From positions 9,721 through 73,720 of the forward strand of contig JAQTMH010000001.1 in the NCBI GenBank assembly GCA_028714495.1: a stretch of DNA of 64,000 nt, in the 5' to 3' direction. This document shows, piece by piece, positions 6,304 to 54,200 of this stretch (position 1 is the stretch's first letter; the number at the start of each line of letters is the position of its first letter). The DNA is from Patescibacteria group bacterium. GTDB lineage: Bacteria > Patescibacteriota > Patescibacteriia > JAHIZJ01. A model generated the notes under the pieces. That model was not told the origin of the DNA. It did no database searches and was given only the letters and a program-made list of their open reading frames with translations. The position numbers and the translations under genes were made by a program.

Positions 6304-8541
6304 ATGGCGAAACAGCTTGTCATCGTGGAATCTCCCACCAAAGCTAAAACCATCTCCCGTTTCCTCGGGAAGGCTTTTATTATAAAATCATCAAACGGCC
6401 ATGTGCGCGATTTGCCCAGGAGCAAAATGGGCGTGGATATTGAGCATGATTTCGCACCGCAATACGTGATCCCGACGCGCAGCCGGAAAACCGTCACCGC
6501 CCTGAAAAAGGAGGCCAAAGCGGCCGATTCCATTCTCTTCGCGACAGACGAAGACCGCGAAGGCGAGGCCATATCCTGGCATTTAGCTCAATTGTTGGAA
6601 GTTCCCGATGAAAAAGTTAAGCGGATTACCTTTGAAGAAATTACCGAAGGCGCTATCAAAAAGGCGGTGGTGAATCCGCGCCGAATTGACACAAACTTGG
6701 TTAACGCCCAGCAAGCCCGCCGAATCCTAGACCGGCTTTTGGGCTATGAACTCTCTCCCTTTCTCTGGAAAAAGGTGGCCAAGGGCTTGTCAGCTGGCCG
6801 GGTGCAATCCGTCGCCTTGAGAATCATCGTCGAGCGGGAACAGGCTATCTTGGCTTTCAAACCGGTGGAGTATTGGCTAATCCAGGGAGAATTTGACAAG
6901 TCAGACCATTCAGAACCGCATATCACCGCCCGCCTCTTTCAATACAAAGACAAGCGCTTTGAGAAGCTTTCTCTCACCAGCAAGGACGCGGGAGAAAAGG
7001 TTGTCAAAGATTTGAAAGATGCCACCTTCGCGGTCCACAAGCTTGAGCAGAAAGAAATGAGGCGCTGGCCCTTGCCGCCTTTTACCACCTCGACTCTCCA
7101 GCAGGAAGCTAATCGCCGGTTTGGTTTCTCAACCCGGCAAACCATGTTTTTAGCTCAAACCCTTTACGAAGGTCTTCCTGTGGGCGATGAAGGCCCGGTC
7201 GGTCTGATTACTTACATGCGAACCGACTCGGTCAATCTGTCTGAAGAATTTCTATTAAAAGCCGTGAAATTTGTCAAAGATACCTACGGACCAGACTATA
7301 CCGGCTCCCAGCCTCGGCGCTATACCACTAAGCAGAGACTGGCCCAGGAAGCCCACGAGGCCATCCGGCCAACCGACGTCACCCGCACTCCGGAAAAAGT
7401 CAAACCATATCTTGATTCGGCTTCCTACCGCGTTTATTCCCTGATCTGGTCCCGGGCCGTGGCCTCGCAGATGACCGAGGCGGTTATGGATCAAACGACT
7501 ATCGATATAAAAAGTTCCAGCGATTATATCTTCCGGGCCACGGGCAGCGTCGTGAAATTCGACGGTTATCAAAAAGTTTACGTGACCAACCAAAAAGACG
7601 TGGTCCTGCCAAAAGTCGCGGCCAACGAACCCCTGAACCTCCTGGATTTAAAACACGAGCAGAAATTCACCGAACCGCCCAGCCGCTTTTCCGAGGCTGG
7701 CCTGGTCAAAGCCCTTGAGGAATACGGCATTGGCCGGCCGTCAACCTATTCCCCGACCATCTCAACCCTGGTCGAGAGAAAATACGTGGAAAAAGAGCGC
7801 CGCCGGCTAAAACCCACTGAAATCGGCATCCTCGTCACGGATTTGCTGGTCAAGCATTTTCCCCAGGTGGTTGATTATAAATTCACGGCTCAAATGGAAG
7901 AGGGGCTTGATTTAATCGCCGCCGGGAAAAAAGAATGGGTGCCTCTGCTCAAAGATTTTTATACGCCCTTCAAAGAGCATCTCACGAAAAAAGAGCTTGA
8001 GATTTCAAAGAAAGAACTGACCGAAACCGCCACTGACCAGGTTTGTGAAAAATGCGGCAAGCCCATGGTTATAAAAATGGGGCGCTTCGGCAAATTTATG
8101 GCCTGCTCCGGCTACCCCGAGTGTAAAAATACTAAGCAATTAAACGGCGACGGCACCGGTCCGGAAGCTGTCGAGCTGACCGATGAAAAATGTCCGGAGT
8201 GCGGCAAACCCTTGCAGCGGAAAGTCGGCCGCTTCGGCCCCTTCTTCGGCTGTACCGGCTACCCCGATTGTAAATTCATTAAAAATATCGAAAAGTCCAC
8301 CGGCGTTAAATGTTCCCAGTGCGGCGAGGGCGATTTAATTGAGAAACGAAGCTTCAAAGGCCGAACCTTTTATTCCTGCAACCAATATCCCAAATGCCGT
8401 TTTGCCCTGTGGTCAAAACCCACCGGCGAAAAATGCCCGGACTGCGGCTCACTCCTGGTCTACGCGAAAAAAGGCACTATTGCCTGCTCCAGCAAGGAGT
8501 GCAAATTTACCAAATCAGCCGACGAGATAAAAACGGGATAA
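6304..8541 (+). CDS. topA: DNA topoisomerase I with C-terminal Zn-ribbon repeats
   Basis: N-terminal Toprim (LVIVESPTKAKTI), catalytic region (YMRTDS) and several CxxC...CxxC zinc ribbons at the C-terminus. Confidence 0.9.
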   Translation: MAKQLVIVESPTKAKTISRFLGKAFIIKSSNGHVRDLPRSKMGVDIEHDFAPQYVIPTRSRKTVTALKKEAKAADSILFATDEDREGEAISWHLAQLLEVPDEKVKRITFEEITEGAIKKAVVNPRRIDTNLVNAQQARRILDRLLGYELSPFLWKKVAKGLSAGRVQSVALRIIVEREQAILAFKPVEYWLIQGEFDKSDHSEPHITARLFQYKDKRFEKLSLTSKDAGEKVVKDLKDATFAVHKLEQKEMRRWPLPPFTTSTLQQEANRRFGFSTRQTMFLAQTLYEGLPVGDEGPVGLITYMRTDSVNLSEEFLLKAVKFVKDTYGPDYTGSQPRRYTTKQRLAQEAHEAIRPTDVTRTPEKVKPYLDSASYRVYSLIWSRAVASQMTEAVMDQTTIDIKSSSDYIFRATGSVVKFDGYQKVYVTNQKDVVLPKVAANEPLNLLDLKHEQKFTEPPSRFSEAGLVKALEEYGIGRPSTYSPTISTLVERKYVEKERRRLKPTEIGILVTDLLVKHFPQVVDYKFTAQMEEGLDLIAAGKKEWVPLLKDFYTPFKEHLTKKELEISKKELTETATDQVCEKCGKPMVIKMGRFGKFMACSGYPECKNTKQLNGDGTGPEAVELTDEKCPECGKPLQRKVGRFGPFFGCTGYPDCKFIKNIEKSTGVKCSQCGEGDLIEKRSFKGRTFYSCNQYPKCRFALWSKPTGEKCPDCGSLLVYAKKGTIACSSKECKFTKSADEIKTG

Positions 8542-8786
8542 TTACCAGTATTCGTTTCATTATCGAAAAAATATCACTGTTTGCCAGCCCACCCGGCAGA
8601 CAATTATTCGAATTCAAGAAGATAGATTTCCTGGGGTCCATAAAGAAGCGCTCTTGCCTACAACCAGGGCAATCGCGGAATTGCCTGAGTTTGGGAGTGC
8701 CTCAATTATCTTTATTCCGTCTGGAATAATCAATAGCGCTTGACTCCAATCCATTTCAGTGCTACATTAACAAGCTCATTTGCTGT

Positions 8787-10196
8787 TTGAAATCACGATC
8801 CCTAGACCTCCAATCCCGCGTCGCGGGTGATGAAAGGAGTCTGTCCATGAAAACGGGCCTCATTACCTGCGCCGTCCTCGCCCTCGTACTCGCTGGCTGC
8901 GGCGAGAATGGAACCGAACCGGACGAGCACGGCACCATCATCTGCCAAACGTTGCCGGATAGCGCGGCCATCTGGCTTGACGGTATCGACACCGGCAAGG
9001 TGACGGATGCCGAGCTGACCGACATTGACTTTGGCGAACATGTGGTTACCTTCACGATCCACGGCTACCACGACTATGCTGAAACGGTCACAGTCAATGC
9101 TTCCCCCGTCATGGTGTACCGCAATTTCCCGGAACATAAACCGCCTGCCCTGCGCGTACTGTCAAATCCGCCCGGGGCAATCATCACGCTCAACGACACG
9201 ACACTGTCTGTTGTCACGCCGGCGGTCTTCCCCGACGTTCCGCTTGGCTGCAACGACCAATGCGACGTCTACCTGCGCTTGCCAGGCTATTACCCGCATT
9301 TTGAAACGGTACTGCTAGACAGCGAGAACACAATCACGGTCTCAGCCACGCTCGAGCCCTGCCCGGACATCGACCTTACGTTCGCGCGGAACGATACGCT
9401 CTATGCCATGAAAGCCGACGGCTTGACGCGGCGGGTGCTGGCGACCGGACTGGGCAATGGCGGCCTGTACCAGGTATCGCCCAACGGCCAGTATATCGCC
9501 TACTCGGCTATTACCGGTATCGTCGTCGCGAATCGGGACGGCAGCATCAGGGCTGAGATGCCAAGTCTGTACGGCGGAGATGACTACGCCTGGTCAAACT
9601 CAGGCGACCAGCTCGTCTTCGGCCAGTTCGTCGACGGCATCTATCTTTACGACGCGCCGTCGAACACTACCCGGGAGATTCTTGAGACGCGGGGCTTTCT
9701 CTACGACCACAGCCCGACTTTCTCGCCCGGGGATTCATATGTCGCCTATGTCTATTACGCCGACGGGAACGACGCCGCCATCAAGGTGATGCGAGCCGAC
9801 GGAAGCGAAGCGCGCACGGTCTTCTCGCGGGCCAGAACCAAGTATGACGCGTCGTCGCTGCGACTTTGTTGGGCAGCTTCCAACGCGATCATCTGGACCA
9901 ACACCAGTGGCATCTACCGGGTGGATCCGAATGCCGGAACCAACGAAAAGGTGGTAGACGCCTACCTGACCTCTGTCGCCTATTCACCCGATCGGACGAA
10001 ATACGCGTTTATCGAGAGCGGTGACCAACACGGCCTGTACATCGGAACGGTCGGCCAGTGGGATCGCCGCCGCCTGCTGGACACCCACGCGGACGCGCCG
10101 CGCTGGCTGCCTGGGAATGACTGTCTTCAGTACTGGGGAGACGGCCATCTCAAGTTGATGTCCTCGGACGGCACCACGCACATCATTGCTCCATAG
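8787..10196 (+). CDS. Secreted lipoprotein with PEGA-like domains and a TolB-like beta-propeller region
   Basis: The true start is probably the internal Met near 8847 (MKTGLITCAVLALVLAGCG lipobox). Two PEGA-like segments and repeated YSPD/beta-propeller-like motifs. About 60% GC. Confidence 0.55.
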   Translation: MKSRSLDLQSRVAGDERSLSMKTGLITCAVLALVLAGCGENGTEPDEHGTIICQTLPDSAAIWLDGIDTGKVTDAELTDIDFGEHVVTFTIHGYHDYAETVTVNASPVMVYRNFPEHKPPALRVLSNPPGAIITLNDTTLSVVTPAVFPDVPLGCNDQCDVYLRLPGYYPHFETVLLDSENTITVSATLEPCPDIDLTFARNDTLYAMKADGLTRRVLATGLGNGGLYQVSPNGQYIAYSAITGIVVANRDGSIRAEMPSLYGGDDYAWSNSGDQLVFGQFVDGIYLYDAPSNTTREILETRGFLYDHSPTFSPGDSYVAYVYYADGNDAAIKVMRADGSEARTVFSRARTKYDASSLRLCWAASNAIIWTNTSGIYRVDPNAGTNEKVVDAYLTSVAYSPDRTKYAFIESGDQHGLYIGTVGQWDRRRLLDTHADAPRWLPGNDCLQYWGDGHLKLMSSDGTTHIIAP

Positions 10197-10468
10197 TATA
10201 ACAAACCACCGCCTCGGCTTAACAGCCTGGGCGGATTTTCTTTTTTATAAATTCGGGATAGTATCACTTGCCAGCCCGGTAGATAATCATTCGAATTCGG
10301 GCGGATGGAATAGATGAGGAATCCATGATTATTTTATTTTAGTTTAGGTCTTCTAATAATTACTCTTGACAGAATCATTTTTCTGCGCTATACTTTTTTG
10401 TTCATAATGTTTAGTTGAACCCCCCGTTGCGAGGGCCTCGCGACACAGTTCATTTGGAGGGACAAGTG

Positions 10469-10744
10469 ATGTCAAAGACATACCATGACCTGAGCGATGA
10501 TGAGATCAGGCGGGCCGCAAGGCAAATCGTAAGCGACTCCTCAAGTGACGATGAGATCAGGGCAGGCCTGCGTGACAAGCTGGGTTACCCCTACAGTGCA
10601 GCTATCACCTCGTGTCAGCCTGCTGACCAGGTCGGTCGCGAGGCCCGAGCCATAGCGCAGGGTCTCGGCGGTCTCGTCCGCAAGGACGGTGCCATGGTGA
10701 TGGTGATGATGCACAGCCCGCGGGGTGACACGATCTCGCTCTGA
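10469..10744 (+). CDS. Hypothetical small protein (GC-rich island cargo)
   Basis: The ORF track begins at a TTG (10415). An internal ATG at 10469 has a GGAGGG SD. No recognisable domain. Followed by a rho-independent terminator. Confidence 0.35.
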   Translation: MSKTYHDLSDDEIRRAARQIVSDSSSDDEIRAGLRDKLGYPYSAAITSCQPADQVGREARAIAQGLGGLVRKDGAMVMVMMHSPRGDTISL

Positions 10745-10768
10745 AGTTGCCGCCGCCAGCATCGCAAT

Positions 10769-10808
10769 AGGCTCCTCGTGGCATTCGCCGCTTGGAGCCT
10801 CTTTTTTT
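10769..10808 (+). terminator. Rho-independent terminator
   Basis: AGGCTCC...GGAGCCT stem followed by CTTTTTTT. Confidence 0.55.
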
Positions 10809-10914
10809 AATACAGAAAAATGATGCCCTGCTTCAGACGGAATTTAGAATATCCTAATAAACAAAAAGGATGAAGATATATTGCTCATTGTTCTAGCTTG
10901 TACAAATCTTTTGT

Positions 10915-11035
10915 CAAAACCCACCGGCGAAAAATGCCCGGACTGCGGCTCACTCCTGGTCTACGCGAAAAAAGGCACCATCGCCTGCTCCAGCAAGGAG
11001 TGCAAATTCACCAAATCAGCCGACGAGATAAAATA
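10915..11035 (+). repeat. Duplicate of the topA 3' end (right-hand direct repeat)
   Basis: About 121 nt nearly identical to 8413-8541. Three substitutions, all synonymous in the topA frame, and a different terminal codon context. Confidence 0.85.
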
Positions 11036-11097
11036 ACCAGGATATAAAAAATCGCTTCATTTCTAAAATGAGGTATTTTATTGGTGTATTTGTTTAT

Positions 11098-12168
11098 TTA
11101 TTCTAGAACTGACTTTTCAAATTCGCATATTCCGAATATTTTCTCAAATTCGGTTGTGGTTTTTATCAGCTTTCCATGAGGGAAAATATTTCGCAAGAGC
11201 GGTTTATTTTTAATTCTGGATATCATTTCATCGGTCGGCCGCCAATCAATCCCCGCCTGATCAAATAACATTTTCAGCTGGTAACACTCCTGTTTCATTA
11301 CTAATGATTTCAAATCTTCAAAATCCAGTTGGCGGATCTCTTTATATATTTCAGTGGCTTTGAAGGAAAATTCGTCAATAAGATTATCGATGGTTATCGC
11401 ATCCAAAGGTTTTTTATCCGCAGATACGGCAAATTTTTTCATGCCCTCAACCGGGCTTAGCCCGTGAGAAATCGTATGGCAGCCGACAAAGGATATTTCC
11501 AATTCCACGCCCGAATAAACGGTATAAATGATAATTTCTTTTGCGCTCGCCAAATATCTTTTTGGCCACAACTCTTTTGGTCGGAGATTGGGAAAATGAC
11601 GGATTAAAAATATCTGTTTAGATTCTAAGTGATAAGGTCCATAAGCGTCCCAGCCGAGATCAGTAACCAAATCATTATAGAGACCATGGACAAACGAACC
11701 AACCGCGGTTATTAGTCGTCCAATTTTTCTGGCATATTGAATATCGGCTTTATTCCATTTAATATTCTTTATCAATCCATCAATCTCTGATTTTGTCTGA
11801 AACGGATTTGATTTAAGAGCGAATGGATCGTCCGGGCAGCTCTCCTTGAGCAGACGCGCGAAAAAATTCGCGACTAACTTGTAATCCTTCAGATAATACT
11901 CTTTATTTTCTGCGTGACTGGCATGATAAGAGGATATCAGCTTCATGAGAATCGCGCGCATGTTTGAAGGCGGCGGCAGTATTTCTCTAATCTCATTAAA
12001 ATGTCTTGATTCTAAGTCCAATTTTGTGATCGCCTGCGAGATGCGGGCGATCCACAGGTCATACCAAAGAGGGAAGAAATGATAAAAATCAAGCGGTTGA
12101 AACCCCTCTAATACCTGCCCCTTGAGCAGGTTTGAGGCGGATCTTGAAAATTCTTTAACCCAGGTCAT
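11098..12168 (-). CDS. Hypothetical protein (356 aa), overlapped by the upstream PEP-utilizer domain gene
   Basis: Start overlaps the preceding gene by 14 nt. No recognisable motif. Possibly the C-terminal partner of a split or permuted protein. Confidence 0.5.
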   Translation of the reverse strand: MTWVKEFSRSASNLLKGQVLEGFQPLDFYHFFPLWYDLWIARISQAITKLDLESRHFNEIREILPPPSNMRAILMKLISSYHASHAENKEYYLKDYKLVANFFARLLKESCPDDPFALKSNPFQTKSEIDGLIKNIKWNKADIQYARKIGRLITAVGSFVHGLYNDLVTDLGWDAYGPYHLESKQIFLIRHFPNLRPKELWPKRYLASAKEIIIYTVYSGVELEISFVGCHTISHGLSPVEGMKKFAVSADKKPLDAITIDNLIDEFSFKATEIYKEIRQLDFEDLKSLVMKQECYQLKMLFDQAGIDWRPTDEMISRIKNKPLLRNIFPHGKLIKTTTEFEKIFGICEFEKSVLE

Positions 12169-12484
12169 ATATTTCTCCTTTTTGGCCGTCGACCCGGATG
12201 CGCCTGCCGTTTTTTATTTTTTCGGTTGCCTTTTTCGTATTAACAATACAGGGAATTCCCATTTCGCGACTGAGTATTGCCGGATGCGAAGTAATCCCCC
12301 CGATGTCCGTAATAATTGCCGCGGCTTTTATCATCGCGGTCACCATGGTGGGGTCGGTAATGGCGGCTACCAAAACATCGCCCTCCTTGAATGAAGACGG
12401 GTCGTCCCCGGAATGAAATATCCTGGCTGCGCCCTCGGCTATTCCCGGGCTGGCGCCTATGCCTTTTAGCAATATTTTTTTCAT
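12155..12484 (-). CDS. PEP-utilizing enzyme mobile (phosphohistidine swivel) domain protein
   Basis: GGITSHPAILSREMGIPCIV matches the PEP-utilizers His-domain signature (GG-x-TSHAAI-x-RE-x-G-x-P). Confidence 0.7.
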   Translation of the reverse strand: MKKILLKGIGASPGIAEGAARIFHSGDDPSSFKEGDVLVAAITDPTMVTAMIKAAAIITDIGGITSHPAILSREMGIPCIVNTKKATEKIKNGRRIRVDGQKGEIYDLG

Positions 12485-12557
12485 GTTGTAGAATAATCAG
12501 ATATTTCGTCTAACGTTCGCGTCTCATGCGCTGTCCGCCTCCGTTTGTCAAATACGT

Positions 12558-12962
12558 TTAAATATTGTCCAAATTTCCGTGTAGCACTACCGAATCTACC
12601 GCGATAAGTTCTTCATAGTGCGGATGGTCTTCGTGTATCGGATTAAGTAAAAATATTTTCTTTTGAAGAAAGATGGCAACAGATAGTTCCATTAAAGTAT
12701 TTGACCCAAAGTAACCCTTAATACCCTTCTTCTCGTGGTTTATTATTAATATGGCGTCGGAACTTTCGATCCTTTTGAAATGAAACTTGGTCCAAACAGG
12801 TTTCATTGCTAACAAATTTTCACGGCCATTATTTTTCTGATACCACTCCTCGGTAACTAATGGATCTGGAACATAAATCTCATGGCCTTTTTTCTTTAAA
12901 TGTTCAGCAGCCTTGCCCATTTCTTCCGCAAAGGTGGCACTTCCACATATTGTAATAATCAT
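12558..12962 (-). CDS. Nucleoside 2-deoxyribosyltransferase-like protein
   Basis: Small Rossmann-like protein (MIITICGS...GSNTLMELSVA) with a conserved Glu in a G-T-x-x-E-l context. Family assignment is tentative. Confidence 0.4.
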   Translation of the reverse strand: MIITICGSATFAEEMGKAAEHLKKKGHEIYVPDPLVTEEWYQKNNGRENLLAMKPVWTKFHFKRIESSDAILIINHEKKGIKGYFGSNTLMELSVAIFLQKKIFLLNPIHEDHPHYEELIAVDSVVLHGNLDNI

Positions 12963-12987
12963 AGAATTGAAAATATGTTGTGCGCTG

Positions 12988-13365
12988 TTAGATATATTTT
13001 CTGCAATTTTTGCTGCCGCAATCGCACTTAAAGTGCAGCTGTATATCGGCTACCGAGTAATCTGATGTGATTTCCTCGCCTTTTTTAATATCTTTGATCG
13101 CCACATCGCAGTTATTCCCTACTTTGGTATTTGGATCGCAAGAGTGATTTACAAATCGCTCAGGCTTTTGTTGCAGCAGGAATTCACCAGGCGTGTAGTG
13201 TGAGACATGGTGCCGTTCAGACTCAGGCAGCCTATCCACTTCTTCTTTTGTCAAAACCTTTTTAGATTTCCATTTCAACACTACTTCACCGCGTTTGAAA
13301 TTTCGTATGGCAAAAACCCCCTTCTTATTGAGTTTCGATTTTTTTACAACAATATCTTTTGACAT
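12988..13365 (-). CDS. SET-domain protein-lysine methyltransferase with post-SET Cys cluster
   Basis: GVFAIRNFKRGEVV (GxG region), NHSCDPN (NHSCxPN motif), EEITSDY (ELxxDY) and a C-terminal CDCGSKNC post-SET cluster. Confidence 0.8.
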   Translation of the reverse strand: MSKDIVVKKSKLNKKGVFAIRNFKRGEVVLKWKSKKVLTKEEVDRLPESERHHVSHYTPGEFLLQQKPERFVNHSCDPNTKVGNNCDVAIKDIKKGEEITSDYSVADIQLHFKCDCGSKNCRKYI

Positions 13366-13408
13366 AAGAAATGAGGAATGGTGTATAACATTTGTGTCTC
13401 ATGCGCTG

Positions 13409-13870
13409 TTAAGTTATTCCTAGCTGTTTATCTAATGGGGGATTTGAAAAATATACACGTACCGCAGTACCAGGTTCCATATATTCTATCATCTCAAAGT
13501 TGCCTTTATCGATTAGTGAAAAGCCCTTTTGATTAAGATGTGCCTTTTTGAATTCATCATAGTTAGACAGGGTGAAATCAGCATCACCCCGCTCAGGCCT
13601 GGTGGGATCAGGTTTGCGTATTTTAAGCAACTGTAGGTTCCCGGCCACAGTCGGTAAAGGTGCAATTTGAAAAAGAGGACCGGTTTTTGTTTCTTGGACC
13701 ACCTTTCCTAACTGCCCAGCAAGATTAATAACTGAGGTATATTCCTCATCGTTTTGGCAAAAAATGCAAGCATAATTCACTGGAGCAGGGTCATTGACAA
13801 ACTTCCGTTTCAGTACTTCAGCCTGAGCGATAATATCTTGTATGGTATTCTTCAAATCATCTATGTTCAT
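13409..13870 (-). CDS. Hypothetical protein (153 aa)
   Basis: ORF with a CxxC (CIFCQ) near the N-terminus. No recognisable family. Confidence 0.4.
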   Translation of the reverse strand: MNIDDLKNTIQDIIAQAEVLKRKFVNDPAPVNYACIFCQNDEEYTSVINLAGQLGKVVQETKTGPLFQIAPLPTVAGNLQLLKIRKPDPTRPERGDADFTLSNYDEFKKAHLNQKGFSLIDKGNFEMIEYMEPGTAVRVYFSNPPLDKQLGIT

Positions 13871-14126
13871 ATCTTATGTTTAATAATCCTATGCGCCGAA
13901 GTGTATGGCTGATAACGTTTGCGTATATCTGATGTCGTGCGTAGCGGGATATAGGCGGAGGCTCGCCGGAGGCGAACCGGAGCCAGATATACGCTGTTAG
14001 ATGGTGTATGCTTTTCTTTTCTCGACGATGAGTCGGGCTACTTTTCTGTAATGAACAAATTTTATTTTCGTCTTGGCGAAAGGGCATAGGGGTCGGGGGT
14101 GAATGCCCCGTAGGCAAGACACGTTA

Positions 14127-15512
14127 TCATGGTAATTCTGGAAAAGTAACAATACCGCCTATCCCATTTTTTATTACATCGCGACACCTTTTTGCAAATT
14201 CTTCATTCTTTGTCTCTTTCACATATTTTGCAACACGGAAAAGGTCAGCAGTTCTTACTAAAACACAATTTGATGATTTCGCTGTATTAATACATTTCGT
14301 CGTAAATTGTTCTGCTCGTTCAGATGGTTTCGTGAGTCGAAAACCATTTCCGAATAAAATACCAACCGCGGGGTACTCCACCTCGCCTCTTTGCAGATCC
14401 TCATGAATATTTACAGCAAGTTGCCTAAATTTATCAATGTTTATCGCGGAAGTATCCTTGCCTTCGGCCTCACCAATAAATCGATCTTTTTCCGGCGAAG
14501 TGATAATGTGATCTAATTCAAGATTACCATCATTATAGTTTTCCGAAGAATACCCTAAAATTTCTAGGGCGGTAGTAATTGCATTCTCGAGTATCTTTCC
14601 TTTTTCAAAAAGTAAATCTCTTAATTTAATTTCCTCATCAATTTTTTTCAGCAGTTCGTTCTTTTGTGAGATGAGTTTTTCAATTTCCTTTGCTTTATTT
14701 TCAACACCTTTATGCAAAACCTCCACTTGTGCCAATCGAAAATCTATCTCGTTTGTCCAATCAGGAGGAGGAGTTACATCTCCGCCTTTTCGGAGCGCTT
14801 TATCAATATCAACTAGTGATTTGGCTAAAGATTTACCAAACTGAGTTGCCTTTTTCGTCCAGTATTTATTCCTTCCCTTCCCCTTAGATTCAGTAAATTT
14901 TTTCTCATCGTAACTTATATAAGGCAAAACGATCAGATTGCCACTTTTAACCTTGAAGATTGCTCCTAAAAGCTTTGTCTTATCCTTACCTGTAAAAAGA
15001 ATCTGCGCCTCAGGCGTGTTTTCTATATAGAGCTGATATCCTAAATATTCTTTAAACTTATCGTAAAAATCACTAACTATTGGGTTTCCAGAAAATGTAA
15101 CGTTTTTTCCGGAGGCGGATACTAATGTTCCGATACTGATTGGTAAAAAATCATAGTTAGTTTTCGTATATGTACTGTGTAAATTTTCGCCTTTCCTGGG
15201 GTGTGATACTCCAGATGAAAGCATCTGAGTTTTTTCTTTGGACAGAATGATAAAAACACTTTTTCCAGATTGTAAAAAATCTGCTATTTCTTTTTTGAGA
15301 TGAGAAATTTTTTCCTCATATTCACGTGATGTTGGAGCATTGTAGCAACCTCCTCCTGACGAAAATTCGACCCAACTCCCTCTTGGATATAGTTCTTCTG
15401 GTGAAATCAATAATATATCAGCGTCCATCAGGGACACATCATCATAAAAATCAATATAACTTTCATCCAATGTTGGTATTGTATACCCGATTGTGAAAAT
15501 CAGTTTTTCCAT
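14127..15512 (-). CDS. Hypothetical protein (461 aa) with central coiled coil
   Basis: Long Lys/Glu-rich coiled-coil segment (KEIEKLISQKNELLKKIDEEIKLRDLLFEKGK). The C-terminal region has a D...E-x-K-like arrangement (LELDHII...GEAEGKD) faintly reminiscent of PD-(D/E)xK nucleases. Unverified. Confidence 0.45.
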   Translation of the reverse strand: MEKLIFTIGYTIPTLDESYIDFYDDVSLMDADILLISPEELYPRGSWVEFSSGGGCYNAPTSREYEEKISHLKKEIADFLQSGKSVFIILSKEKTQMLSSGVSHPRKGENLHSTYTKTNYDFLPISIGTLVSASGKNVTFSGNPIVSDFYDKFKEYLGYQLYIENTPEAQILFTGKDKTKLLGAIFKVKSGNLIVLPYISYDEKKFTESKGKGRNKYWTKKATQFGKSLAKSLVDIDKALRKGGDVTPPPDWTNEIDFRLAQVEVLHKGVENKAKEIEKLISQKNELLKKIDEEIKLRDLLFEKGKILENAITTALEILGYSSENYNDGNLELDHIITSPEKDRFIGEAEGKDTSAINIDKFRQLAVNIHEDLQRGEVEYPAVGILFGNGFRLTKPSERAEQFTTKCINTAKSSNCVLVRTADLFRVAKYVKETKNEEFAKRCRDVIKNGIGGIVTFPELP

Positions 15513-15735
15513 AGTTGAAAATAATCCTTTTCGAGGTGTAGCTGGGAAAGCACCATAGCCCCCCCTTTAAAAAATTCGAAAATAAAATTTGTTCATTGCA
15601 GATAAAGTATAGGCGTCAGCCGTGAAAAGAAAAGCATATGCCATATAACTCGTTTTTATGCGAATAAAGTGTGTGATATACCCCAATTATTGCATATTCT
15701 ACGAAATATGGCTAATTATCGCCATAAGTGGATAT

Positions 15736-15766
15736 ATAAAATCACCCCGCTTAGCGAGGTGATTTC
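15736..15766 (-). terminator. Rho-independent terminator of the 776-aa membrane protein gene
   Basis: Minus strand: AAATCACC-loop-GGTGATTT followed by TTTTATATAT. Confidence 0.55.
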
Positions 15767-15790
15767 TTTATCTGCTTGGATTATTTTTAC

Positions 15791-29400: not shown

Positions 29401-31176
29401 TTAAAAGTGTATTACCTGCCCAGGTCTAAGATGCCGGTCGCCCCTTGATTGGGTTTGACCCCCGGGCCTTCTCGGAAATCGGGGTTGCTGATTTTGGGGC
29501 TTCCGGAAGTTTTTAAAAGACATCGGCTCCCGAGTTAAAGCCTCTTTGAGGCTGATCGGCGTCGGGATTGATGATGCTTCTTCGACAATCTTCAAATCCT
29601 TTTCTACCGGCGCTGCTTTGGCTTCCTTTTTTCTTTCGGCTGGCGCGTTTTGATCACCGGCCATAGCCTGCAGAAAATTAATTCCTTCTCTATTCTTGTC
29701 TGGCGCTGTCTCGCGCGGCTTGACCTGCCGTGTTTCAGGCCTCGGACTAACTTTCCCTCGACCCTGCTCGGGATAAGCAGTCGGGGCATTTCTCTCAACC
29801 TTGCCCTGAAATACCATTTTCTCGATTTTTTCTTTTTCTTCGCGCCGCTGTCCATTTTCACCATTTTCCCCTTCCTCCATCTCAGCCATGCCGCTCCAGC
29901 GCATTATTTTATCCTCAACTACCGCCCGAGGCGTGGCATAACGCTCTCGCGAAACCCGGATGATCTTCTCGAGATTTCCCTCCTTAGCTCGGCTGTGAAG
30001 CGGGGGCAGGCCATGAGCTGAGAATGGCTCTGAAGCCACTCCGTCAATCATCAGCTTGAGATACATCTCAAATTTGGTCAGGTTTACCAGATCATTCTGC
30101 ATGAAAACGGGTTCAAATTCTTTTTCGAGATATTCCGCGTCAGTCGCGCCAACCCGGAAAGCCACAATTGTGCCGACATTGCCAAAAACCGCCGCCTGGA
30201 CTTCCTCGTCAAGCTGTTCAATGTACTGGTGGGCGATAATCAGGTCAAGGCGGTATTTCCGGGCTTCAGACAAGATATTGGCAAAACTCTCAGTGGCAAA
30301 ATTCTGAAACTCATCAACGTAAAGAAAGAAGTCGCGCCGTTCCTCCTCCGGAATGTCAACCCGGCTCATGGCCGCCAGCTGTAATTTCGTGATCATCATA
30401 GCGCCAAGTAAAGCCGCGTTATCCTCACCGATCCGGCCTTTAGATAGATTCATAATCAATATTTTCCCGGTATCCATGATTTCCCGCATATCGACTGAAC
30501 TCTTGGTTTGACCCACGATGTTGCGAATCACCGAACTGGATAAAAACTGGCCGACTTTGTTTTGGATTGGCGAAATCGCCTCGGTTCGGAATTGATTGCC
30601 ATAAGCCGCGTACTCCTCAAGCCAAAAGGTTCTCAAAATCGGGTCGTTAATTTTTGACACGACTTTTTTTCGATATTTGTTATCAACCAGTAGCCGGGTA
30701 ATGCCCAAGAGAGTTGAGCCCGGGTATTCCAAAAGGGATAGAACGGTATTGCGGAGTACGTATTCGAGACGCGGGCCCCAGGAATCAGCCCAAATTTTCT
30801 TGAAAACTCCCACTAGACCGGAGGCCACCAGGTGACGGTGGACTGGATTGACTGATTCGAGAACATTGAAGGCAATCGGGTAGTCAATATCGGCCGGATT
30901 GAAATATATCACGTCGTTGATCCGATCGGCTGGAATGTAATCCAATATTTCCTCGGCCAAATCACCGTGAGGATCAACCAGCGCCACGCCCCGGCCAGCC
31001 GTGATATCAGCCACGATCATCTGTTGCAATAGCGTGGTCTTGCCCATGCCGGTTTTACCGATGACATACATATGCCGGCGCCGGTCATCTAATTTAATGC
31101 CAAAACTCCTCCGCTGATTACGGAAATTTGTCTGGGCAAATAGAGCAATGTCTTTGTTGTCGGTGTCGTCGGGCAT
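29401..31176 (-). CDS. VirD4/TraG/FtsK-superfamily P-loop ATPase (T4SS coupling-protein-like) with charged low-complexity C-terminal tail
   Basis: Walker A YVIGKTGMGKTTLL, Walker B FLYVDEFQNF, IIAHQYIEQL. No N-terminal TM segments. The last ~190 aa are E/K/R/P-rich. Confidence 0.6.
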   Translation of the reverse strand: MPDDTDNKDIALFAQTNFRNQRRSFGIKLDDRRRHMYVIGKTGMGKTTLLQQMIVADITAGRGVALVDPHGDLAEEILDYIPADRINDVIYFNPADIDYPIAFNVLESVNPVHRHLVASGLVGVFKKIWADSWGPRLEYVLRNTVLSLLEYPGSTLLGITRLLVDNKYRKKVVSKINDPILRTFWLEEYAAYGNQFRTEAISPIQNKVGQFLSSSVIRNIVGQTKSSVDMREIMDTGKILIMNLSKGRIGEDNAALLGAMMITKLQLAAMSRVDIPEEERRDFFLYVDEFQNFATESFANILSEARKYRLDLIIAHQYIEQLDEEVQAAVFGNVGTIVAFRVGATDAEYLEKEFEPVFMQNDLVNLTKFEMYLKLMIDGVASEPFSAHGLPPLHSRAKEGNLEKIIRVSRERYATPRAVVEDKIMRWSGMAEMEEGENGENGQRREEKEKIEKMVFQGKVERNAPTAYPEQGRGKVSPRPETRQVKPRETAPDKNREGINFLQAMAGDQNAPAERKKEAKAAPVEKDLKIVEEASSIPTPISLKEALTREPMSFKNFRKPQNQQPRFPRRPGGQTQSRGDRHLRPGQVIHF

Positions 31177-48221: not shown

Positions 48222-51200
48222 TTATGAGGTAACTTTTACAATTCCTGAGAAATAGCTCGAACAATAGGCGGGTGAACTGCCGCAAGGGAACGGCTCCGCT
48301 TCAGACCATCGACAAGTCGCGAACGGCGTATCACCGCCCCGGCACGCTCCTTGGCAGCTACCACCAAAACACTCAGCATTATTAGCGCATTGCTGGCCGT
48401 CACGATCACCACCAGAACAATTTCCGCTGCCCTTTTCCCAATTGTCCTGAACCCACACTCTCACGTAGCAGCCATCTGCACAGCTTGGATATACATACTC
48501 ATGGTGGGCATAGTGATAGGGACCATCGGGATTTGAGAGCGGTCCGATTGCTACGTTTATTGTCTGGAGGGGTGTGCCGTCGCCCCAGTCAATAAATATA
48601 TTCTTTATTGGTATCTGTTCAGAATCGACCGTCGAATTAAAGCTCAATATGGCCGTGCCGCCGCCGTTTGGAATTTGTATTGCCCCGGTCCGGTTGTTAA
48701 TCTTGATATTAAATACCGACGGCTGGATCCAACAATAATCATAGGGAAAGCCGCTGGTTTGATCGGGCCGCGTATCAGAACTTTCGCCGGTATTATTTAC
48801 TAAGCGGCATTGAGGCATGCTAGCGAAATCATTGTTATAGGCTGTCCTAAAGAGCGTGGTGTCTTCGAAATATTTAGTGTCGCCCGGATTATAAGTCAGG
48901 CCGTCATCAATCTGATTGCAATAATTATCAGGATTTGTGTAGCCGCCCTGTAACTCATCGCATTGCTGTCCAGACAGTAGGCCGCCAACACAGACCTTAT
49001 CACCGCATTTATCCGGCGCACTAGGGCATTCTTCAATGACGCAGGGACAATCATCCTCGACATTACATCCTTCGCCAATATTATCGCCGACCGTGCAGAC
49101 ACCAATATATTCCTCACAGACGCCGCCGCTCACTCCGAAACAAGCCGCGTCAGAACCGCAGGCCTGGCCGCAGTAATATCCGCAACCTCCGGTTTGCTCA
49201 TCACCTTGCCAGGCGCAAACTGCTTCAGCGCAAAAACCATCCGGCACCTGATTGCCGTGTTCGTCAATGCCCCCCTCGCAATCATTGTCGTCTTCACAAG
49301 CCAGCTTGTCGTTTAAGCCTCCGACGCAGACTGCGTCAGCGCATACCCCCCCGGCTCCGCAAACGCCGGTTTCTTCGCAAAGCTCAAGCGACGTACTGCA
49401 CCTTTCTCTTTCACTGCAGGCCACTCCAGGTTCACAATTGCACCTATTAGCGCTCTTACGGCAGATATCCGCGTCGCTAAGGCAGGTGCCTAAACCCTGA
49501 CAATAATTCTGAGGCGTACCATTTGAAGCGCAAAGCTGGCTCGGCCGGCCGCTGCATACTCCATTAGCGCAGAAGCCGCCTGTGCCCTCGCAGTCGCATT
49601 CAAAAGTTCCGTAGGTACATTTGGAATTTGTATTGCAGGTATAAGTAGTCGGGCAATTGTTTTCAATGCTGCACGACACTGTTGTGTCTCCGTCACAACG
49701 CTGTCTCACCGCGCCGCACATATTGTCTACGGGCAGACACACATCCTTTGGCGGTGGCAGGCCTATGCAATCATCATTAGTCACACAAGGCCTGGAGCCT
49801 AAGGTTCTGCCTCCGCACCACCAACCGCATTCCTCATCTTCCGTGCAAGCGGGACCAGTAAGGTCATCCTGACAAACCGTGACCGTGGTGCAAGTGCCAA
49901 TACCCGGACAGTCGCAGTCTGGATTTGTGTTGGAAACGCACTTTTTATCTCCGCCGACCGAGGAACAGGTCGCGCCGAGCGGACAATTATTTGATATCGA
50001 GCAGGCTGCTCCTGGTTCATCTCCGCCTTCGCAGCGCTCGGATACACAGGCATCGTCTCCTCCGCCAGTACAAATAGAAAGGCCACAGGTTGTGGTCGTT
50101 CCCTCACAGACCCATTTGGGTTCACACACTTCTCCTGCCGGACAGCCGCAAGGCTCACCTTCTTTTTCACCGCCGACGCAGATTTTACCAGCGCAAACGC
50201 CGGCCGCGATATTACAATTCGAATTATCACCTTCGCTGCAGTTTTCTCCGGCCAGCAGGTAGTCCGGGTTACTCGAGGTGCAGGAATATTCATTCACGTC
50301 CGTACACCGTCCATCACCCCAGACCCAGACGCCTAGCACGTCGGCAAAAAGCCTCTCAACCCTCTTCAAACCTAAGCCACCGCCTTCAGCTTCATAACCT
50401 GTCGGCGGCTGTCCGGGCAAGGGCGGATACCCGGGCATGGCCGGATCCAAGCTCCCACTGAACTGCTCAATCGGCTTAAAAGTACTCGGAAATACGTCAT
50501 CGCAGGCTGTTACCCCGCTAGTATTGTGCTTGCACGAATATGGCGCTCCAGCCCGGGCAAGCTCTAAATAACTTGAATCCCAGAAACTCGCGTATGGATT
50601 TAGATCACCGCTTAGATAATAAATCGGCTGCATTTTTGATTTCAAATCATAGGCCTCGGTAAAAGGATCTCCCCAGGCCGAGTTGAAGTCCGAATCCCAG
50701 GTTCCCGGGTCATTAATGTCATTCGTTCCTTCAGCAGTCAGGCTCTGTTCGCCGGGTGGCACTAGGCTGCCGTAGTTATCTAGGTCCGAAGTGGGTTTTT
50801 CCGTATAGCCGATATCCCAAACCGCCGAGAGACCTCCATTTATCCTCTGCGCCCAAGCCGTGTTCTCGCCGTTTGAATCAACCGCCCGGCCGACCACATC
50901 ACAGCGCAGCGCCAATACTTCGGTCTTCAAATATGGGTAATCCCAGGGGCTGTTTCTTCCGCCGACAAGATTTCCATCAAAAGGCGCCCAGAAGCCAGCC
51001 AGGGGTTCTTTTTTACTCGTATATTCTAACGGCTCATCATGATCATCCCCATGTTCATAGTAATCGCAAACATCGCTCGACGGTATCCCATCTGGAATGC
51101 AAACATGCCAGCATTGATCCTGGTGACCGCCACCCCTGACAGCCTTTTCGCAGAGGAATTTATAATAACCATCAGCGCATTTATGGTTATGCGCGTAATT

Positions 51201-54200
51201 GCAGTTATGAAATGCTACGGTGTAGGGTCTCCGATATTCATAGAAGCTCGACTGAAGACAATAATAGAGCGGGGCATCGCCATAATATCCGACGACTTCG
51301 CCACCGCCGAAAATATTCGATTCGCCTTCAATAATATCAACCGGCCACCACTGCAGGCAAATATTAGAGTTCTGCGGATCACGCTCAAGGCAATAGCCCT
51401 TCCAACCCTTGTAAATACGGCTTTGTTCATCGACATAATCACAGGAGAGGGAATTGGCCGCGGGATAGAGCCGGCAAGACCGCTGAACCATGCGCTCGTC
51501 ATCGGGAAGTTCCGGCGGCTGGTCAGTCGCCTTCTTTTCCAGGACGGCTTGAAGCAATATGTCGTCTAAATAGAATTTTATCGGCGGCTCAAGCCCTCCG
51601 CCCTCGCCGTTGGGCAGAGCTTTCACAAAACTCAAATACGTCTGGCTGACAACATTGTCTGTTTTCAAGCTAAGAGTATAGTACTGCCAAAAATCAGTAG
51701 CGATCACCCGGCCGAATTCCTGGCAATTGTCGTTGTCATCGTTGTTATAGCAGTATTGAACCTTAATTGTCTCTCGCGAATCACTTAAAATTCTAAAGCT
51801 GATAATATAATTGCTGTCATTTTGCACCAGCGAACTCATCGAGGTTTTGGCCCCAGCATCCCGATCGGATGGATTAACCATCAATACTTTATTGTCCCCC
51901 GGATTTTTGGGATCATCAATCACGCTGATGTTGCTGGGAATCTGTTCCATGTTTCTGGCTTGCCAGGGACTGATACTGCCATTTTCGAAATCATGGTTCG
52001 GTAGATCCAATCCGCCGCCGATTTGCCTCATCGCGGCTGTCGGATAATAGCCGTGAACTACCCGGCAAATATTGCCGTCATTGGGTGTGCCACATTGATC
52101 ATCCTGGCAGCCGTTGGCTACGCCCGGACAATCATCTTGATCCCGGCATAATCCGCCGTCATTTTCACCGCCTTCGCATATTCCATCGCGCCAACACGAG
52201 GCACCATCTGCGGAACAGCCCCAGGTTAGTCCCACTCTCGAATAGCCGGAGAGATACCTGACCGCGTCTACCGTGGCCGGAGTATAAGTCAAATCAGTCG
52301 GGTGCGATGGAGCGGTGACCAAACGTTCAAGATATTCAGCCGGGGCCGGGGTGTCCGGATGCTCATATTGCGGAGGACGGACGCACTTGCCATTATTTTC
52401 GCAATCAGCGTCCAAACGGCAGGCTCTTTTCGGATCATTGTCGCACTGTCCTTCGCCCACCGGCTTGGTGCATTCGCCGTTCGAACCCATCTCCTGGCAA
52501 TTGCCGATGTCGTAACAAAGTCTCTCGTCTTGCCCATCCTGATTCGTGGAAGTGAAGCTGGTCTTGCAGTAAAGCCATTGATTGCAGACGCGGTCCCGAT
52601 CAACCTTGATAATGGTATTTGAATCGGCTTTACAATTGTCCACGCCTGGGCATTGGACCGGGCTGCCCTTATTTTCATCAATATCGCCGTAGGTCAGATC
52701 GCTATCATAGGTTAACTGGCCGCCGCTGGTATTATTAAAGAGGATGCACCCTTCGTCGGAATTAACCACGCCATAGCATGACGCCGTATCCGTCGAACCC
52801 TTTATGTAATAGTAAGGTTGACAGCCCGGCAAATAGTCTCCTGGCTCGCTGTAAGCGAAAGGATCGCAGTCTCCGTCTAGTTTATAGAAATTGCCCTGGG
52901 CGTCATACTCCACCCGGCAAGAAGCGCGGCAACCCTGATAAACGCACTCGCCGCCATCGCCGCAAGCAGAGTCAGAATCACAGTAGGCCCCAGGGGTCGG
53001 ACCGCCGGCGCAGATTCTATTGTTAGTGCTGGACACCAAAGATGGCTGCGGGTCTTGCGGATCACGGTACTCGTTGCAGCCGCTGGCCTTGTCTTTACAT
53101 TCACCGACCCAATACTCCGAGCAGGAAAGGCCAGCAACACCAGTTATGGACTCGCTGCAATCATCATCGGTCTGGCAGGCTCTTTCGGCGCAATAGCCGT
53201 CATTATCGCCATCTGAATCAGCGCATCCGAAATCCGGATCGTTCGGGTCAGCGTCAGAATCGCATGATTGACCAGCCCGATTACCGCCGTAGCATACTTC
53301 CGCGTGATCAGTGCAGAATCCGTCATTATCGCTGTTTGGATCATCACAGCCCAGGACCGGATCCTGACCGTCTGCCTGAGAGCTGCATTTCTGGTCATTA
53401 CGGTATCCGCCGTGGCAATATTCCTGCTGCTGCGGACCGCATACTTTGGTCGGCTGGGGATTTCCCAGATACTGTTCGCAACTGCCGTCAGGGCACTCGC
53501 CGCCTCCGCCAAAACAGGCCTTGCCTGCATTAGCCCCACCCACACAGGTATATTTCTCGACCGGACAAAGTTTATCGCTTCCCGCCTTAAACCAAGTATC
53601 ATAAAGCTTGCCCAGGATATTTACGCCGGTCCGATATTCGCAGGTCTGCTCGTTCGGGTCTTTGAAATTCGCATAGCTTCCGCCCTCACCGCCGATCGCG
53701 TATGCCTCGCAGGCCTGCTGCGACGCTTCGCAAAGACTGGTGGCATAGTTGTCAGGAACATTCCTAAGGTAAACGGTGTCATATTTATTGACCCGACCGT
53801 CCTGATCGAAGCTTGGTCGGCCGAGAGCCTGGCAGCCTTTTGCCTCGGCCTGGCAATAGCGCTTAGAGTCATTGACCAATGGATGCACGCTGTCAGCCAC
53901 CGTGACCTGGCCTAGGGTATCGGTCTCAAAAGGTGAAACAGAATTCTGGGTATCAATCACGCTTTCACAGCCAACTTTTTCCGGCCGGCACAGGCTGGTG
54001 AAACTCTTTAAGTAATAATCATTCTTTTTACTGTCTCGATAAAGAGAGCAGCCCACCCATTCATCCGGACACTCATTAAAGCTGTTGTATTTAAGATAAA
54101 CATTGCCCTTAGTTTCCCAGAGGATGATATTGTCAATGAAAAACGCGCTGGTGCCGGAAATCTTGAATACCTCATTAGGATCGACATTGGCCAAAAACTG

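Follow-up and report, generated by a model that had tools for sequence, protein, structure and literature searches.

A putative stand-alone SET and post-SET methyltransferase encoded in a low-GC accessory island of a Patescibacteria bacterium

Introduction

Eukaryotic lysine methyltransferases of the KMT2/Trithorax family carry their SET and post-SET domains inside a multidomain protein, which works together with WDR5, RbBP5 and ASH2L. The SET effectors and nucleoid modifiers of bacteria, such as NUE/cpnSET of Chlamydia, RomA/LegAS4 of Legionella, BtSET of Burkholderia and BaSET of Bacillus, are mostly larger than the protein described here and have secretion signals or extra domains. In this study, we analyzed a stretch of 64,000 nucleotides (nt) from a Patescibacteria group bacterium (contig JAQTMH010000001.1 of assembly GCA_028714495.1, positions 9,721 to 73,720), which is designated as the window, and characterized in silico a gene that encodes a 125-amino acid (aa) protein with a SET and a post-SET domain, designated as the SET protein. 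Patescibacteria, or bacteria of the Candidate Phyla Radiation (CPR), are generally regarded as episymbionts.

Two prokaryotic SET enzymes are known to act on DNA-associated proteins of their own cells: according to a review (PMC3980110), Go1-SET of Methanosarcina mazei (Manzur and Zhou, 2005) methylates the endogenous DNA-binding protein MC1-alpha, probably at Lys37, and cpnSET of Chlamydia methylates its own histone-like protein Hc1. The SET fold can also serve the methylation of a free amino acid. BurB, the methionine S-methyltransferase of Burkholderia thailandensis (PDB 9l4t and 9l4v), binds methionine via main-chain atoms and belongs to the dimethylsulfoniopropionate (DMSP)/malleicyprol gene cluster (PMC12542666). 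In the literature that we searched, no paper linked SET domains to Patescibacteria or to DPANN archaea.

On the basis of its sequence, a structural model and analogy with these enzymes, we consider it fairly probable that the SET protein is a stand-alone minimal SET and post-SET protein-lysine N-methyltransferase, dependent on S-adenosylmethionine (SAM), which acts on an endogenous basic target and is encoded in an atypical accessory island.

Results

Sequence features of the SET protein

The open reading frame (ORF) at 12988..13365 lies on the minus strand, starts with ATG, ends with TAA and encodes 125 aa, and its start Met is the same in homologues. The Pfam SET profile PF00856 matches the protein with 57.1 bits (E 2.8e-15), far above the gathering cut-off of 22.4, and the match takes in profile positions 2 to 104/105. 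The protein is basic, with a pI of 9.4, and has neither a signal peptide nor an additional domain. NCBI already lists a protein of identical sequence, encoded on a contig of 343,867 bp; the gene is real and complete, and its public automatic annotation as a SET-domain protein is correct. Its features are as follows.

12988..13365, minus strand: putative SET and post-SET methyltransferase gene, stop codon included (Pfam, phmmer against PDB, homologues, translation)
13057..13323, minus strand: SET core, residues 15–103, the PF00856 envelope (Pfam score; Foldseek TM)
13318..13326, minus strand: K14-K15-G16, degenerate counterpart of the SAM-binding GxG (family alignment, translation)
13207..13209, minus strand: His53 (MLL1 alignment, family alignment)
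13129..13149, minus strand: NHSCDPN, residues 73–79 (MLL1 and family alignments, translation)
13057..13077, minus strand: EEITSDY, residues 97–103 (MLL1 and family alignments, translation)
13003..13026, minus strand: post-SET CxCx4C, here CDCGSKNC, residues 114–121 (alignments, translation)

The conservation of these motifs was scored on an alignment of 32 family members. Twenty-one columns are invariant, among them those of G16, N73, H74, C76, Y103, C114, C116 and C121, and the SET protein keeps all 21. In the HMMER alignment with human KMT2A/MLL1, N73-H74-S75-C76 pair with NHSC, E97 to Y103 pair with EELTYDY, the final Tyr of which corresponds to Y103, and C114, C116 and C121 pair with the post-SET CxCx4C. 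Judged from these alignments, NHSCDPN is predicted to supply SAM contacts and, through C76, the fourth zinc ligand; the four invariant cysteines C76, C114, C116 and C121 match the post-SET zinc site; and the invariant Y103 is the predicted Tyr of the catalytic site. The counterpart of GxG is less regular, with Lys at position 14 in 15 of the 32 members and Gly in nine. Position 53, His in the SET protein, is His in two of the 32 members, Tyr in 25 and Phe in five; in one HMMER alignment, of modest confidence in this region, His53 pairs with a Tyr that lines the lysine channel of MLL1 and lies on its 'CYMFRI' strand. At position 101, where KMT2 enzymes have the residue of the Phe/Tyr switch, the SET protein has Ser, and 31 of the 32 members have Ser or Thr.

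An earlier reading of this DNA, made from the letters alone (the sequence-only reading), had described a complete SET and post-SET protein with three SET signatures and a CxCxxxxC cluster. The completeness of the protein agrees with the Pfam score, the modeled fold and the translated motifs, and the cluster is present as CDCGSKNC with invariant cysteines. Two of the signatures, NHSCDPN and EEITSDY, were likewise found as described; the GxG signature was not, being K-K-G with only its G16 invariant. Neither of the outcomes that this reading had named as refuting it was obtained: the Pfam score exceeds the threshold, and the expected Asn, His and Tyr, which are Asn73, His74 and Tyr103, pair with NHSC and ELxYDY of MLL1 in a protein with a modeled SET fold.

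Predicted structure and comparison with known SET enzymes

An AlphaFold2 model, built on the family alignment, had a predicted local distance difference test score (pLDDT) of 84.2 and a predicted template modeling score (pTM) of 0.77. Foldseek superposed the model on the SET domains of MLL1, MLL4 and ASH1L with template modeling scores (TM) of 0.79–0.85 (query-normalized) and a probability of 1.00, and as modeled the protein has the SET fold. In sequence searches against PDB chains, the SET and post-SET domains of human KMT2A/MLL1 came first both with phmmer (E 2e-10, residues 5–125) and with the family profile (E 3e-17), followed by KMT2B–D, SET2/ASH1L/NSD, DIM-5, BurB and vSET. The catalytic core is most similar to that of the KMT2 (MLL/SET1) type.

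The likeness to KMT2, the closest match in both sequence and structure, is collinear across residues 5–125, with TM values of 0.72–0.82 for matches of the MLL family, and extends to NHSCxPN, to E-E-[LI]-T-x-D-Y and to the CxCx4C post-SET with a C-terminal 'CRK[FY][LI]'. The differences are nevertheless substantial. Identity is only about 25%; the SET protein stands alone, without flanking domains or partners of the WRAD complex; its SET-I insert is far shorter and, in the HMMER alignment, the beta-hairpin after NHSCDPN is shortened; and it has Ser in place of the Tyr of the Phe/Tyr switch and His53 in place of the channel Tyr. The SET protein would work like a KMT2 core, yet it is not a member of the eukaryotic KMT2/Trithorax family, because it is a single domain of 125 aa with about 25% identity and because the clades of its family, in a prokaryote-only tree, are dominated by CPR bacteria and archaea.

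Of the smaller enzymes, the viral vSET (PBCV-1 A612L, 119 aa) is similar in size and shares the core fold, as a comparison suggested by the sequence-only reading brought out (TM 0.68 query-normalized and 0.80 target-normalized, root-mean-square deviation (rmsd) 2.5 A, profile E 1.3e-6). It lacks the post-SET zinc cluster, its match stops at about residue 106, and it is farther from the SET protein than are the cellular KMT2 and ASH1L domains. Viral SET models in BFVD that matched at E <= 0.001 had query-normalized TM values of 0.51–0.72. BurB resembles the SET protein in being small, bacterial, of SET fold and SAM-dependent, and its structure (9l4v) superposes on the model with a TM of 0.81 and an rmsd of 2.1 A (Foldseek); its sequence match (E 9e-6 with the single sequence, 5e-7 with the profile) covers residues 71–125 only, and no gene setting comparable to the DMSP/malleicyprol cluster was found around the SET gene. 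Go1-SET is, like the SET protein, a small stand-alone prokaryotic SET protein. NUE/cpnSET, RomA/LegAS4, BtSET and BaSET are bacterial SET-domain lysine methyltransferases, and none of them was among the PDB sequence or structure matches of the SET protein.

Family size, distribution and phylogeny

In a metagenome protein collection, at least 700 clusters (90% identity) matched the SET protein at E<=1e-3; among those listed, 119 are not identical to it and share 51–84% identity with it, and most are 120–135 aa long. A profile search, covering 1.84 billion representatives at 50% identity, gave 58 clusters with a limit of E<=1e-30. With the looser limits of E<=1e-10 and E<=1e-3, the counts were 2,177 and 13,325, respectively, the larger of which represents the whole SET superfamily. 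A scan of one genome per GTDB species identified 352 genomes that encode a relative, mostly of CPR bacteria and DPANN archaea. The best 80 of the 352 comprise about 28 CPR/Patescibacteria, about 44 archaea and eight other bacteria; the archaea are mostly DPANN (Woese-, Nano-, Pace-, Micr-, Aenigmat- and Iainarchaeota), together with metagenome-assembled genomes (MAGs) labelled Methanosarcinales, the members of which are 46–57% identical to the SET protein. More distant relatives, about 30% identical, are carried by 62 plasmid records, including proteobacterial and actinobacterial ones, and most of the records listed are annotated as SET-domain or "SET domain-containing protein-lysine N-methyltransferase". 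With SET genes counted in 83 of 390 bacterial genomes in 2007 and in more than 500 by 2014 (PMC3980110), the statement of the sequence-only reading that bacterial SET proteins are rare does not hold, for the 352 species genomes of this subfamily and the plasmid records also contradict it.

In a rough, prokaryote-only neighbor-joining tree, the SET protein falls within a clade made up mainly of CPR proteins, and its sister is a Patescibacteria protein with which it shares 74% identity. The archaeal clades are largely apart, with several CPR/archaeon intermixings. Because of these intermixings, the tree suggests repeated cross-domain transfer of the family, binning errors being the alternative explanation. 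No close relative was found on phage genomes or IMG/VR contigs. A phage origin was rejected: there was one weak phage match, and six distant IMG/VR matches were 30–50% identical, the higher values being over short segments. The nearest relatives are proteins of CPR bacteria and then of DPANN archaea, not of eukaryotes or phages. Exchange between CPR lineages is the probable source of the gene, more so than acquisition from eukaryotes or phages. The small-genome organism that the sequence-only reading had supposed is indeed a Patescibacteria/CPR bacterium.

The accessory island and its setting

The SET gene is the fourth of six genes in a 4.7-kb island, in the order p356, a PEP-utilizers mobile-domain gene (109 aa), p134, SET, p153 and p461. 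The island is flanked on one side by the original end of topA and on the other by a gene for a tetratricopeptide repeat (TPR) membrane protein, followed by parB and parA. Its GC content is 0.394, versus 0.483 in the rest of the window, and the GC content at third codon positions (GC3) is 0.29–0.43 in five of its six genes, versus 0.47–0.64 in core genes.

11037..15790, no strand assigned: low-GC accessory island with six minus-strand genes (GC, GC3)
p356: GC3 0.43
PEP-utilizers mobile-domain gene: GC3 0.545
p134: GC3 0.38
SET: GC3 0.43
p153: GC3 0.35
p461: GC3 0.29
17 core genes: GC3 0.47–0.64

This atypical GC and GC3 composition supports the view that the island is an accessory region, acquired relatively recently. 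The sequence-only reading had placed the SET gene in a cassette-like array; an accessory low-GC island is what we found, and a cassette mechanism is not borne out, with no integrase in the window and no conserved neighborhood. Integron arrays are marked by an adjacent tyrosine recombinase of the IntI type and by an attC after each cassette ORF, an imperfect palindrome of the form RYYYAAC...GTTRRRY. A tblastn search of the whole window with four tyrosine recombinases gave no match at E<=1, neither the six island proteins nor the genes on either side of them matched an integrase, and no attC-like palindrome was noticed in the island, where no formal attC scan was run. We rejected the integron or mobile-cassette reading on these grounds. 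A defense island was rejected as well, since PADLOC, PHROGs and NCBIfam yielded only the PEP-utilizers mobile domain among the island proteins.

The content of the window is typical of a CPR genome. Genes for Mfd, DprA and TopA lie on one side of the island, and those for the TPR membrane protein, ParB, ParA and three tRNAs on the other; SecDF, Lgt and DsbA-like proteins are encoded farther along. The window also contains genes for a 591-aa TrwB/VirD4-like coupling ATPase (29401-31176, minus strand) and for a 3331-aa protein (48222-58217, minus strand), the sole Pfam match of which is a CBM_4_9 carbohydrate-binding domain. These two proteins are of the surface and transfer kinds expected in an episymbiont.

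Neighboring genes

Upstream of the SET gene, at a distance of 43 nt, is p153 (13409-13870, minus strand). The p153 family has at least 1,327 homologues of about 153 aa, 58–77% identical, in CPR bacteria and DPANN archaea, and has neither a Pfam domain nor a name. The only strong PDB match of its AlphaFold2 model (pLDDT 96) is E. coli EC4020 (1k4n, TM 0.70); proteins of the glyoxalase/dioxygenase (VOC) type matched less well. Relatives of p153 occur near SET genes in about four lineages, which is about the chance level for so common a family. We considered p153 as a substrate of the SET protein and rejected it, its modeled structure being enzyme-like and not that of a plausible nucleoid protein.

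Downstream, across a 25-nt gap, is p134 (12558-12962, minus strand), which had no match in Pfam, NCBIfam, PADLOC, PHROGs or PDB sequences; among 160 SET loci from genomes and metagenomes, the only homologue was in the Logan copy of the same island (L001). The 461-aa p461 (14127-15512), in which a possible PD-(D/E)xK-like C-terminus was seen by eye, had no Pfam, PDB, PADLOC or PHROG match.

At the other end of the island (11098-12484, minus strand), the 109-aa protein with a PEP-utilizers 'swivelling' phosphohistidine domain, here PEP109, overlaps p356 by 14 nt; p356 (356 aa) has no detectable homology to known families. A PEP109 and p356 pair (77% and 65% identical, respectively) adjoins a NUDIX-SET arrangement in another Patescibacteria genome (L012, 3087-5547). 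Comparison of this genome with a close relative (L013) shows the pair to be part of a low-GC indel of 2.46 kb. The two genes may form a phosphotransfer module, so far uncharacterized, that moves between CPR genomes.

Repeats, junction motifs and assembly

The sole repeated sequence at the gene junctions of the island is the 24-nt ACAGCGCATGAGACRCRAAYGTTA, a direct repeat in two copies and one truncated copy, which is not palindromic.

13386..13409, minus strand: junction motif ACAGCGCATGAGACACAAATGTTA, immediately following the p153 stop codon and 20 nt ahead of the SET start codon
12511-12534, minus strand: second copy, after the p134 stop
12981-12988, minus strand: truncated copy ACAGCGCA, overlapping or directly after the SET stop (TAACAGCGCA)

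The window contains five occurrences of ACAGCGCA, versus 1.7 expected, and three of the five are at these consecutive gene junctions. No copy of ACAGCGCATGAGACRCRAAYGTTA was present in 90 other loci searched. The motif could be a promoter or operator, or a recombination scar. An imperfect inverted repeat of about 85 nt and about 80% identity brackets p461 (13996-14084 and 15563-15649), forming with it a 1.65-kb unit of terminal inverted repeat (TIR), gene and TIR, and no further copy of this repeat was found in the window or in 177 loci. Both the junction motif and the p461 repeat fit a modular assembly of the island.

A separate duplication affects the last 126 nt of topA, which recur with 96% identity (8407-8532 and 10908-11033), the second copy being an orphan Zn-ribbon fragment (ORF 10881-11036). 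The 2.4 kb between the copies (8533-10907) has a GC content of 0.55 overall and of about 0.60 in genes, with a GC3 of 0.68–0.75, and encodes a PEGA/PD40 lipoprotein and a 109-aa ORF. The repeat brackets this neighboring high-GC unit, not the SET island. Independent Logan unitigs (8448-10942 and 10949-15641) break exactly k-1 = 30 nt around a shared 66-nt core. The unit has the look of an att-like insertion at the 3' end of topA by which the end of the gene was restored, although no integrase is present. An alternative is that the assembler joined strain variants.

An independent Logan contig corresponds exactly to 10949-15641. At the right edge of the island, Logan contigs (SRR22315509) overlap by exactly 30 nt at 15612-15641, within the right-hand arm of the inverted repeat around p461, which indicates that the assembly graph branches there. 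The branching could reflect strain heterogeneity; Logan contigs also break inside parA (19751), and the break at 15612-15641 may mean nothing.

Discussion

By the enzymology of other SET proteins, SAM would bind at G16 and N73-H74, the substrate lysine would enter through a narrow channel, which the post-SET loop with its bound zinc would close, and it would be methylated beside Y103. By analogy, the substrate may be a single abundant basic protein of the cell itself, or a small number of them, nucleoid-associated or ribosomal; we favor an endogenous basic target because of the precedents of Go1-SET with MC1-alpha and of cpnSET with Hc1 (PMC3980110).

Several observations weigh against this proposal. 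Lys replaces the first Gly of GxG, and His53, at what appears to be a lysine-channel position, could alter or weaken activity. The predicted placement of Asn73, His74 and Tyr103 in the SAM pocket draws on an alignment and a global superposition. No neighbor of SET is conserved in the 160 genome and metagenome loci (ORF clustering of 80 loci, tblastn of 160), the best co-occurring family being NUDIX in 10 of 80; because the neighborhood is not conserved, nothing in it points to a substrate, and SET behaves as a stand-alone gene, often among variable genes. The archaeal precedent also has limits. In a search seeded with the family member from one 'Methanosarcinales' MAG, none of the 120 best matches was named Methanosarcina, and a link between Go1-SET and the subfamily of about 125 aa could not be demonstrated among them. 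MC1 is not known from CPR bacteria. Finally, because BurB has a SET fold and methylates a free amino acid, a protein lysine would be the default assumption for the substrate and not a certainty.

The last point raises the possibility that the SET protein is itself a small-molecule methyltransferase, as BurB is in S-methylating free methionine. The close superposition of the two structures (TM 0.81, rmsd 2.1 A), the sequence match (E 9e-6, profile 5e-7) and the demonstrated ability of the fold to act on a free amino acid (PMC12542666) speak for it. We regard it as very unlikely, since the match is limited to residues 71–125 while KMT2 matches over the full length at E 3e-17, and since neither BurI/D/E-like nor other biosynthetic genes were found near SET in the window or the other loci; the main-chain binding of methionine (PMC12542666) leaves no diagnostic side chains to check. 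A weakened, specificity-shifted or decaying island passenger is another explanation, in which the Tyr53-to-His change and K-K-G would have affected the enzyme. His occurs at position 53 in two of 32 members against Tyr or Phe in 30, this position aligns with the lysine-channel Tyr of MLL1, and the gene sits in a low-GC island among otherwise unrelated ORFs. The ORF is nevertheless intact and of full length, all 21 family-invariant residues are kept, Lys14 is the commonest state of the family (15 of 32), and His would still be able to hydrogen-bond the lysine amine, so that we hold loss or shift of function to be rather improbable.

A different role would fit the lifestyle of the organism, that of an episymbiosis effector delivered or released onto the host cell, the proteins of which it would methylate, as is the case for NUE, RomA/LegAS4 and BaSET with eukaryotic hosts. 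Its source is a Patescibacteria bacterium, the gene lies within an accessory island, the family is concentrated in CPR and DPANN, two radiations of episymbionts, and the window encodes the coupling ATPase and the 3331-aa carbohydrate-binding-domain protein; moreover, the bacterial SET proteins characterized so far are mostly host-directed effectors (PMC3980110). Against this, all 125 aa of the protein are catalytic domain, leaving no signal peptide, secretion signal or targeting domain; across the 160 loci, SET showed no linkage to secretion genes; the hosts known for CPR bacteria are themselves bacteria and lack histones; and 16 kb separate the island from the gene for the coupling protein, which has no relation to it. 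An effector role thus appears unlikely. Plant LSMT, a SET enzyme, methylates the large subunit of RuBisCO, and the Form III-type RuBisCO of CPR and DPANN could in principle be the target here. A RuBisCO large-subunit gene lies 2–6 kb from SET in one CPR clade (L012, L014, L100 and L101) and in two archaeal loci (L042 and L067). In the CPR clade it is accompanied by an AMP phosphorylase gene, and in L014 and L100 by an R15P isomerase gene too; in L013, of the same clade, the AMP phosphorylase gene alone is inside the locus. Both families are common to CPR and DPANN, between which RuBisCO genes are known to have moved laterally (PMC6389311). These are only about three independent co-occurrences in 160 loci, a second, independent sample from metagenomes shows the linkage in the same clade only, the two genes are on opposite strands with unrelated genes between them, and the 64-kb window contains no RuBisCO gene; we consider RuBisCO a most improbable target. 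A broader proposal combines elements of both ideas: the family may represent an 'episymbiont' gene common to CPR and DPANN, passed repeatedly between them, with products that act on proteins of the host cell or on a partner transferred laterally along with it, for example Form III RuBisCO. The concentration of the family in CPR and DPANN, the mixing of bacterial and archaeal members in the tree and the accessory location are compatible with it. Nothing in this analysis positively supports delivery of the protein to a host, and we give this proposal little credence. If true, the family would be the first prokaryote-on-prokaryote family of protein-methylating effectors.

The SET gene, which we continue to regard as probably encoding a protein-lysine methyltransferase with an endogenous target, is an ordinary and already annotated member of the prokaryotic stand-alone SET-domain methyltransferases, and a single such gene changes little. 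What is modestly new lies at the level of the family: a compact, conserved, KMT2-like SET and post-SET family is common in CPR and DPANN, two radiations of ultra-small, host-dependent prokaryotes, and bears signs of cross-domain exchange. With its 125 aa, the protein is an attractive minimal model of the KMT2-like catalytic core, and its substrate, once identified, would reveal the role of lysine methylation in cells with minimal genomes.

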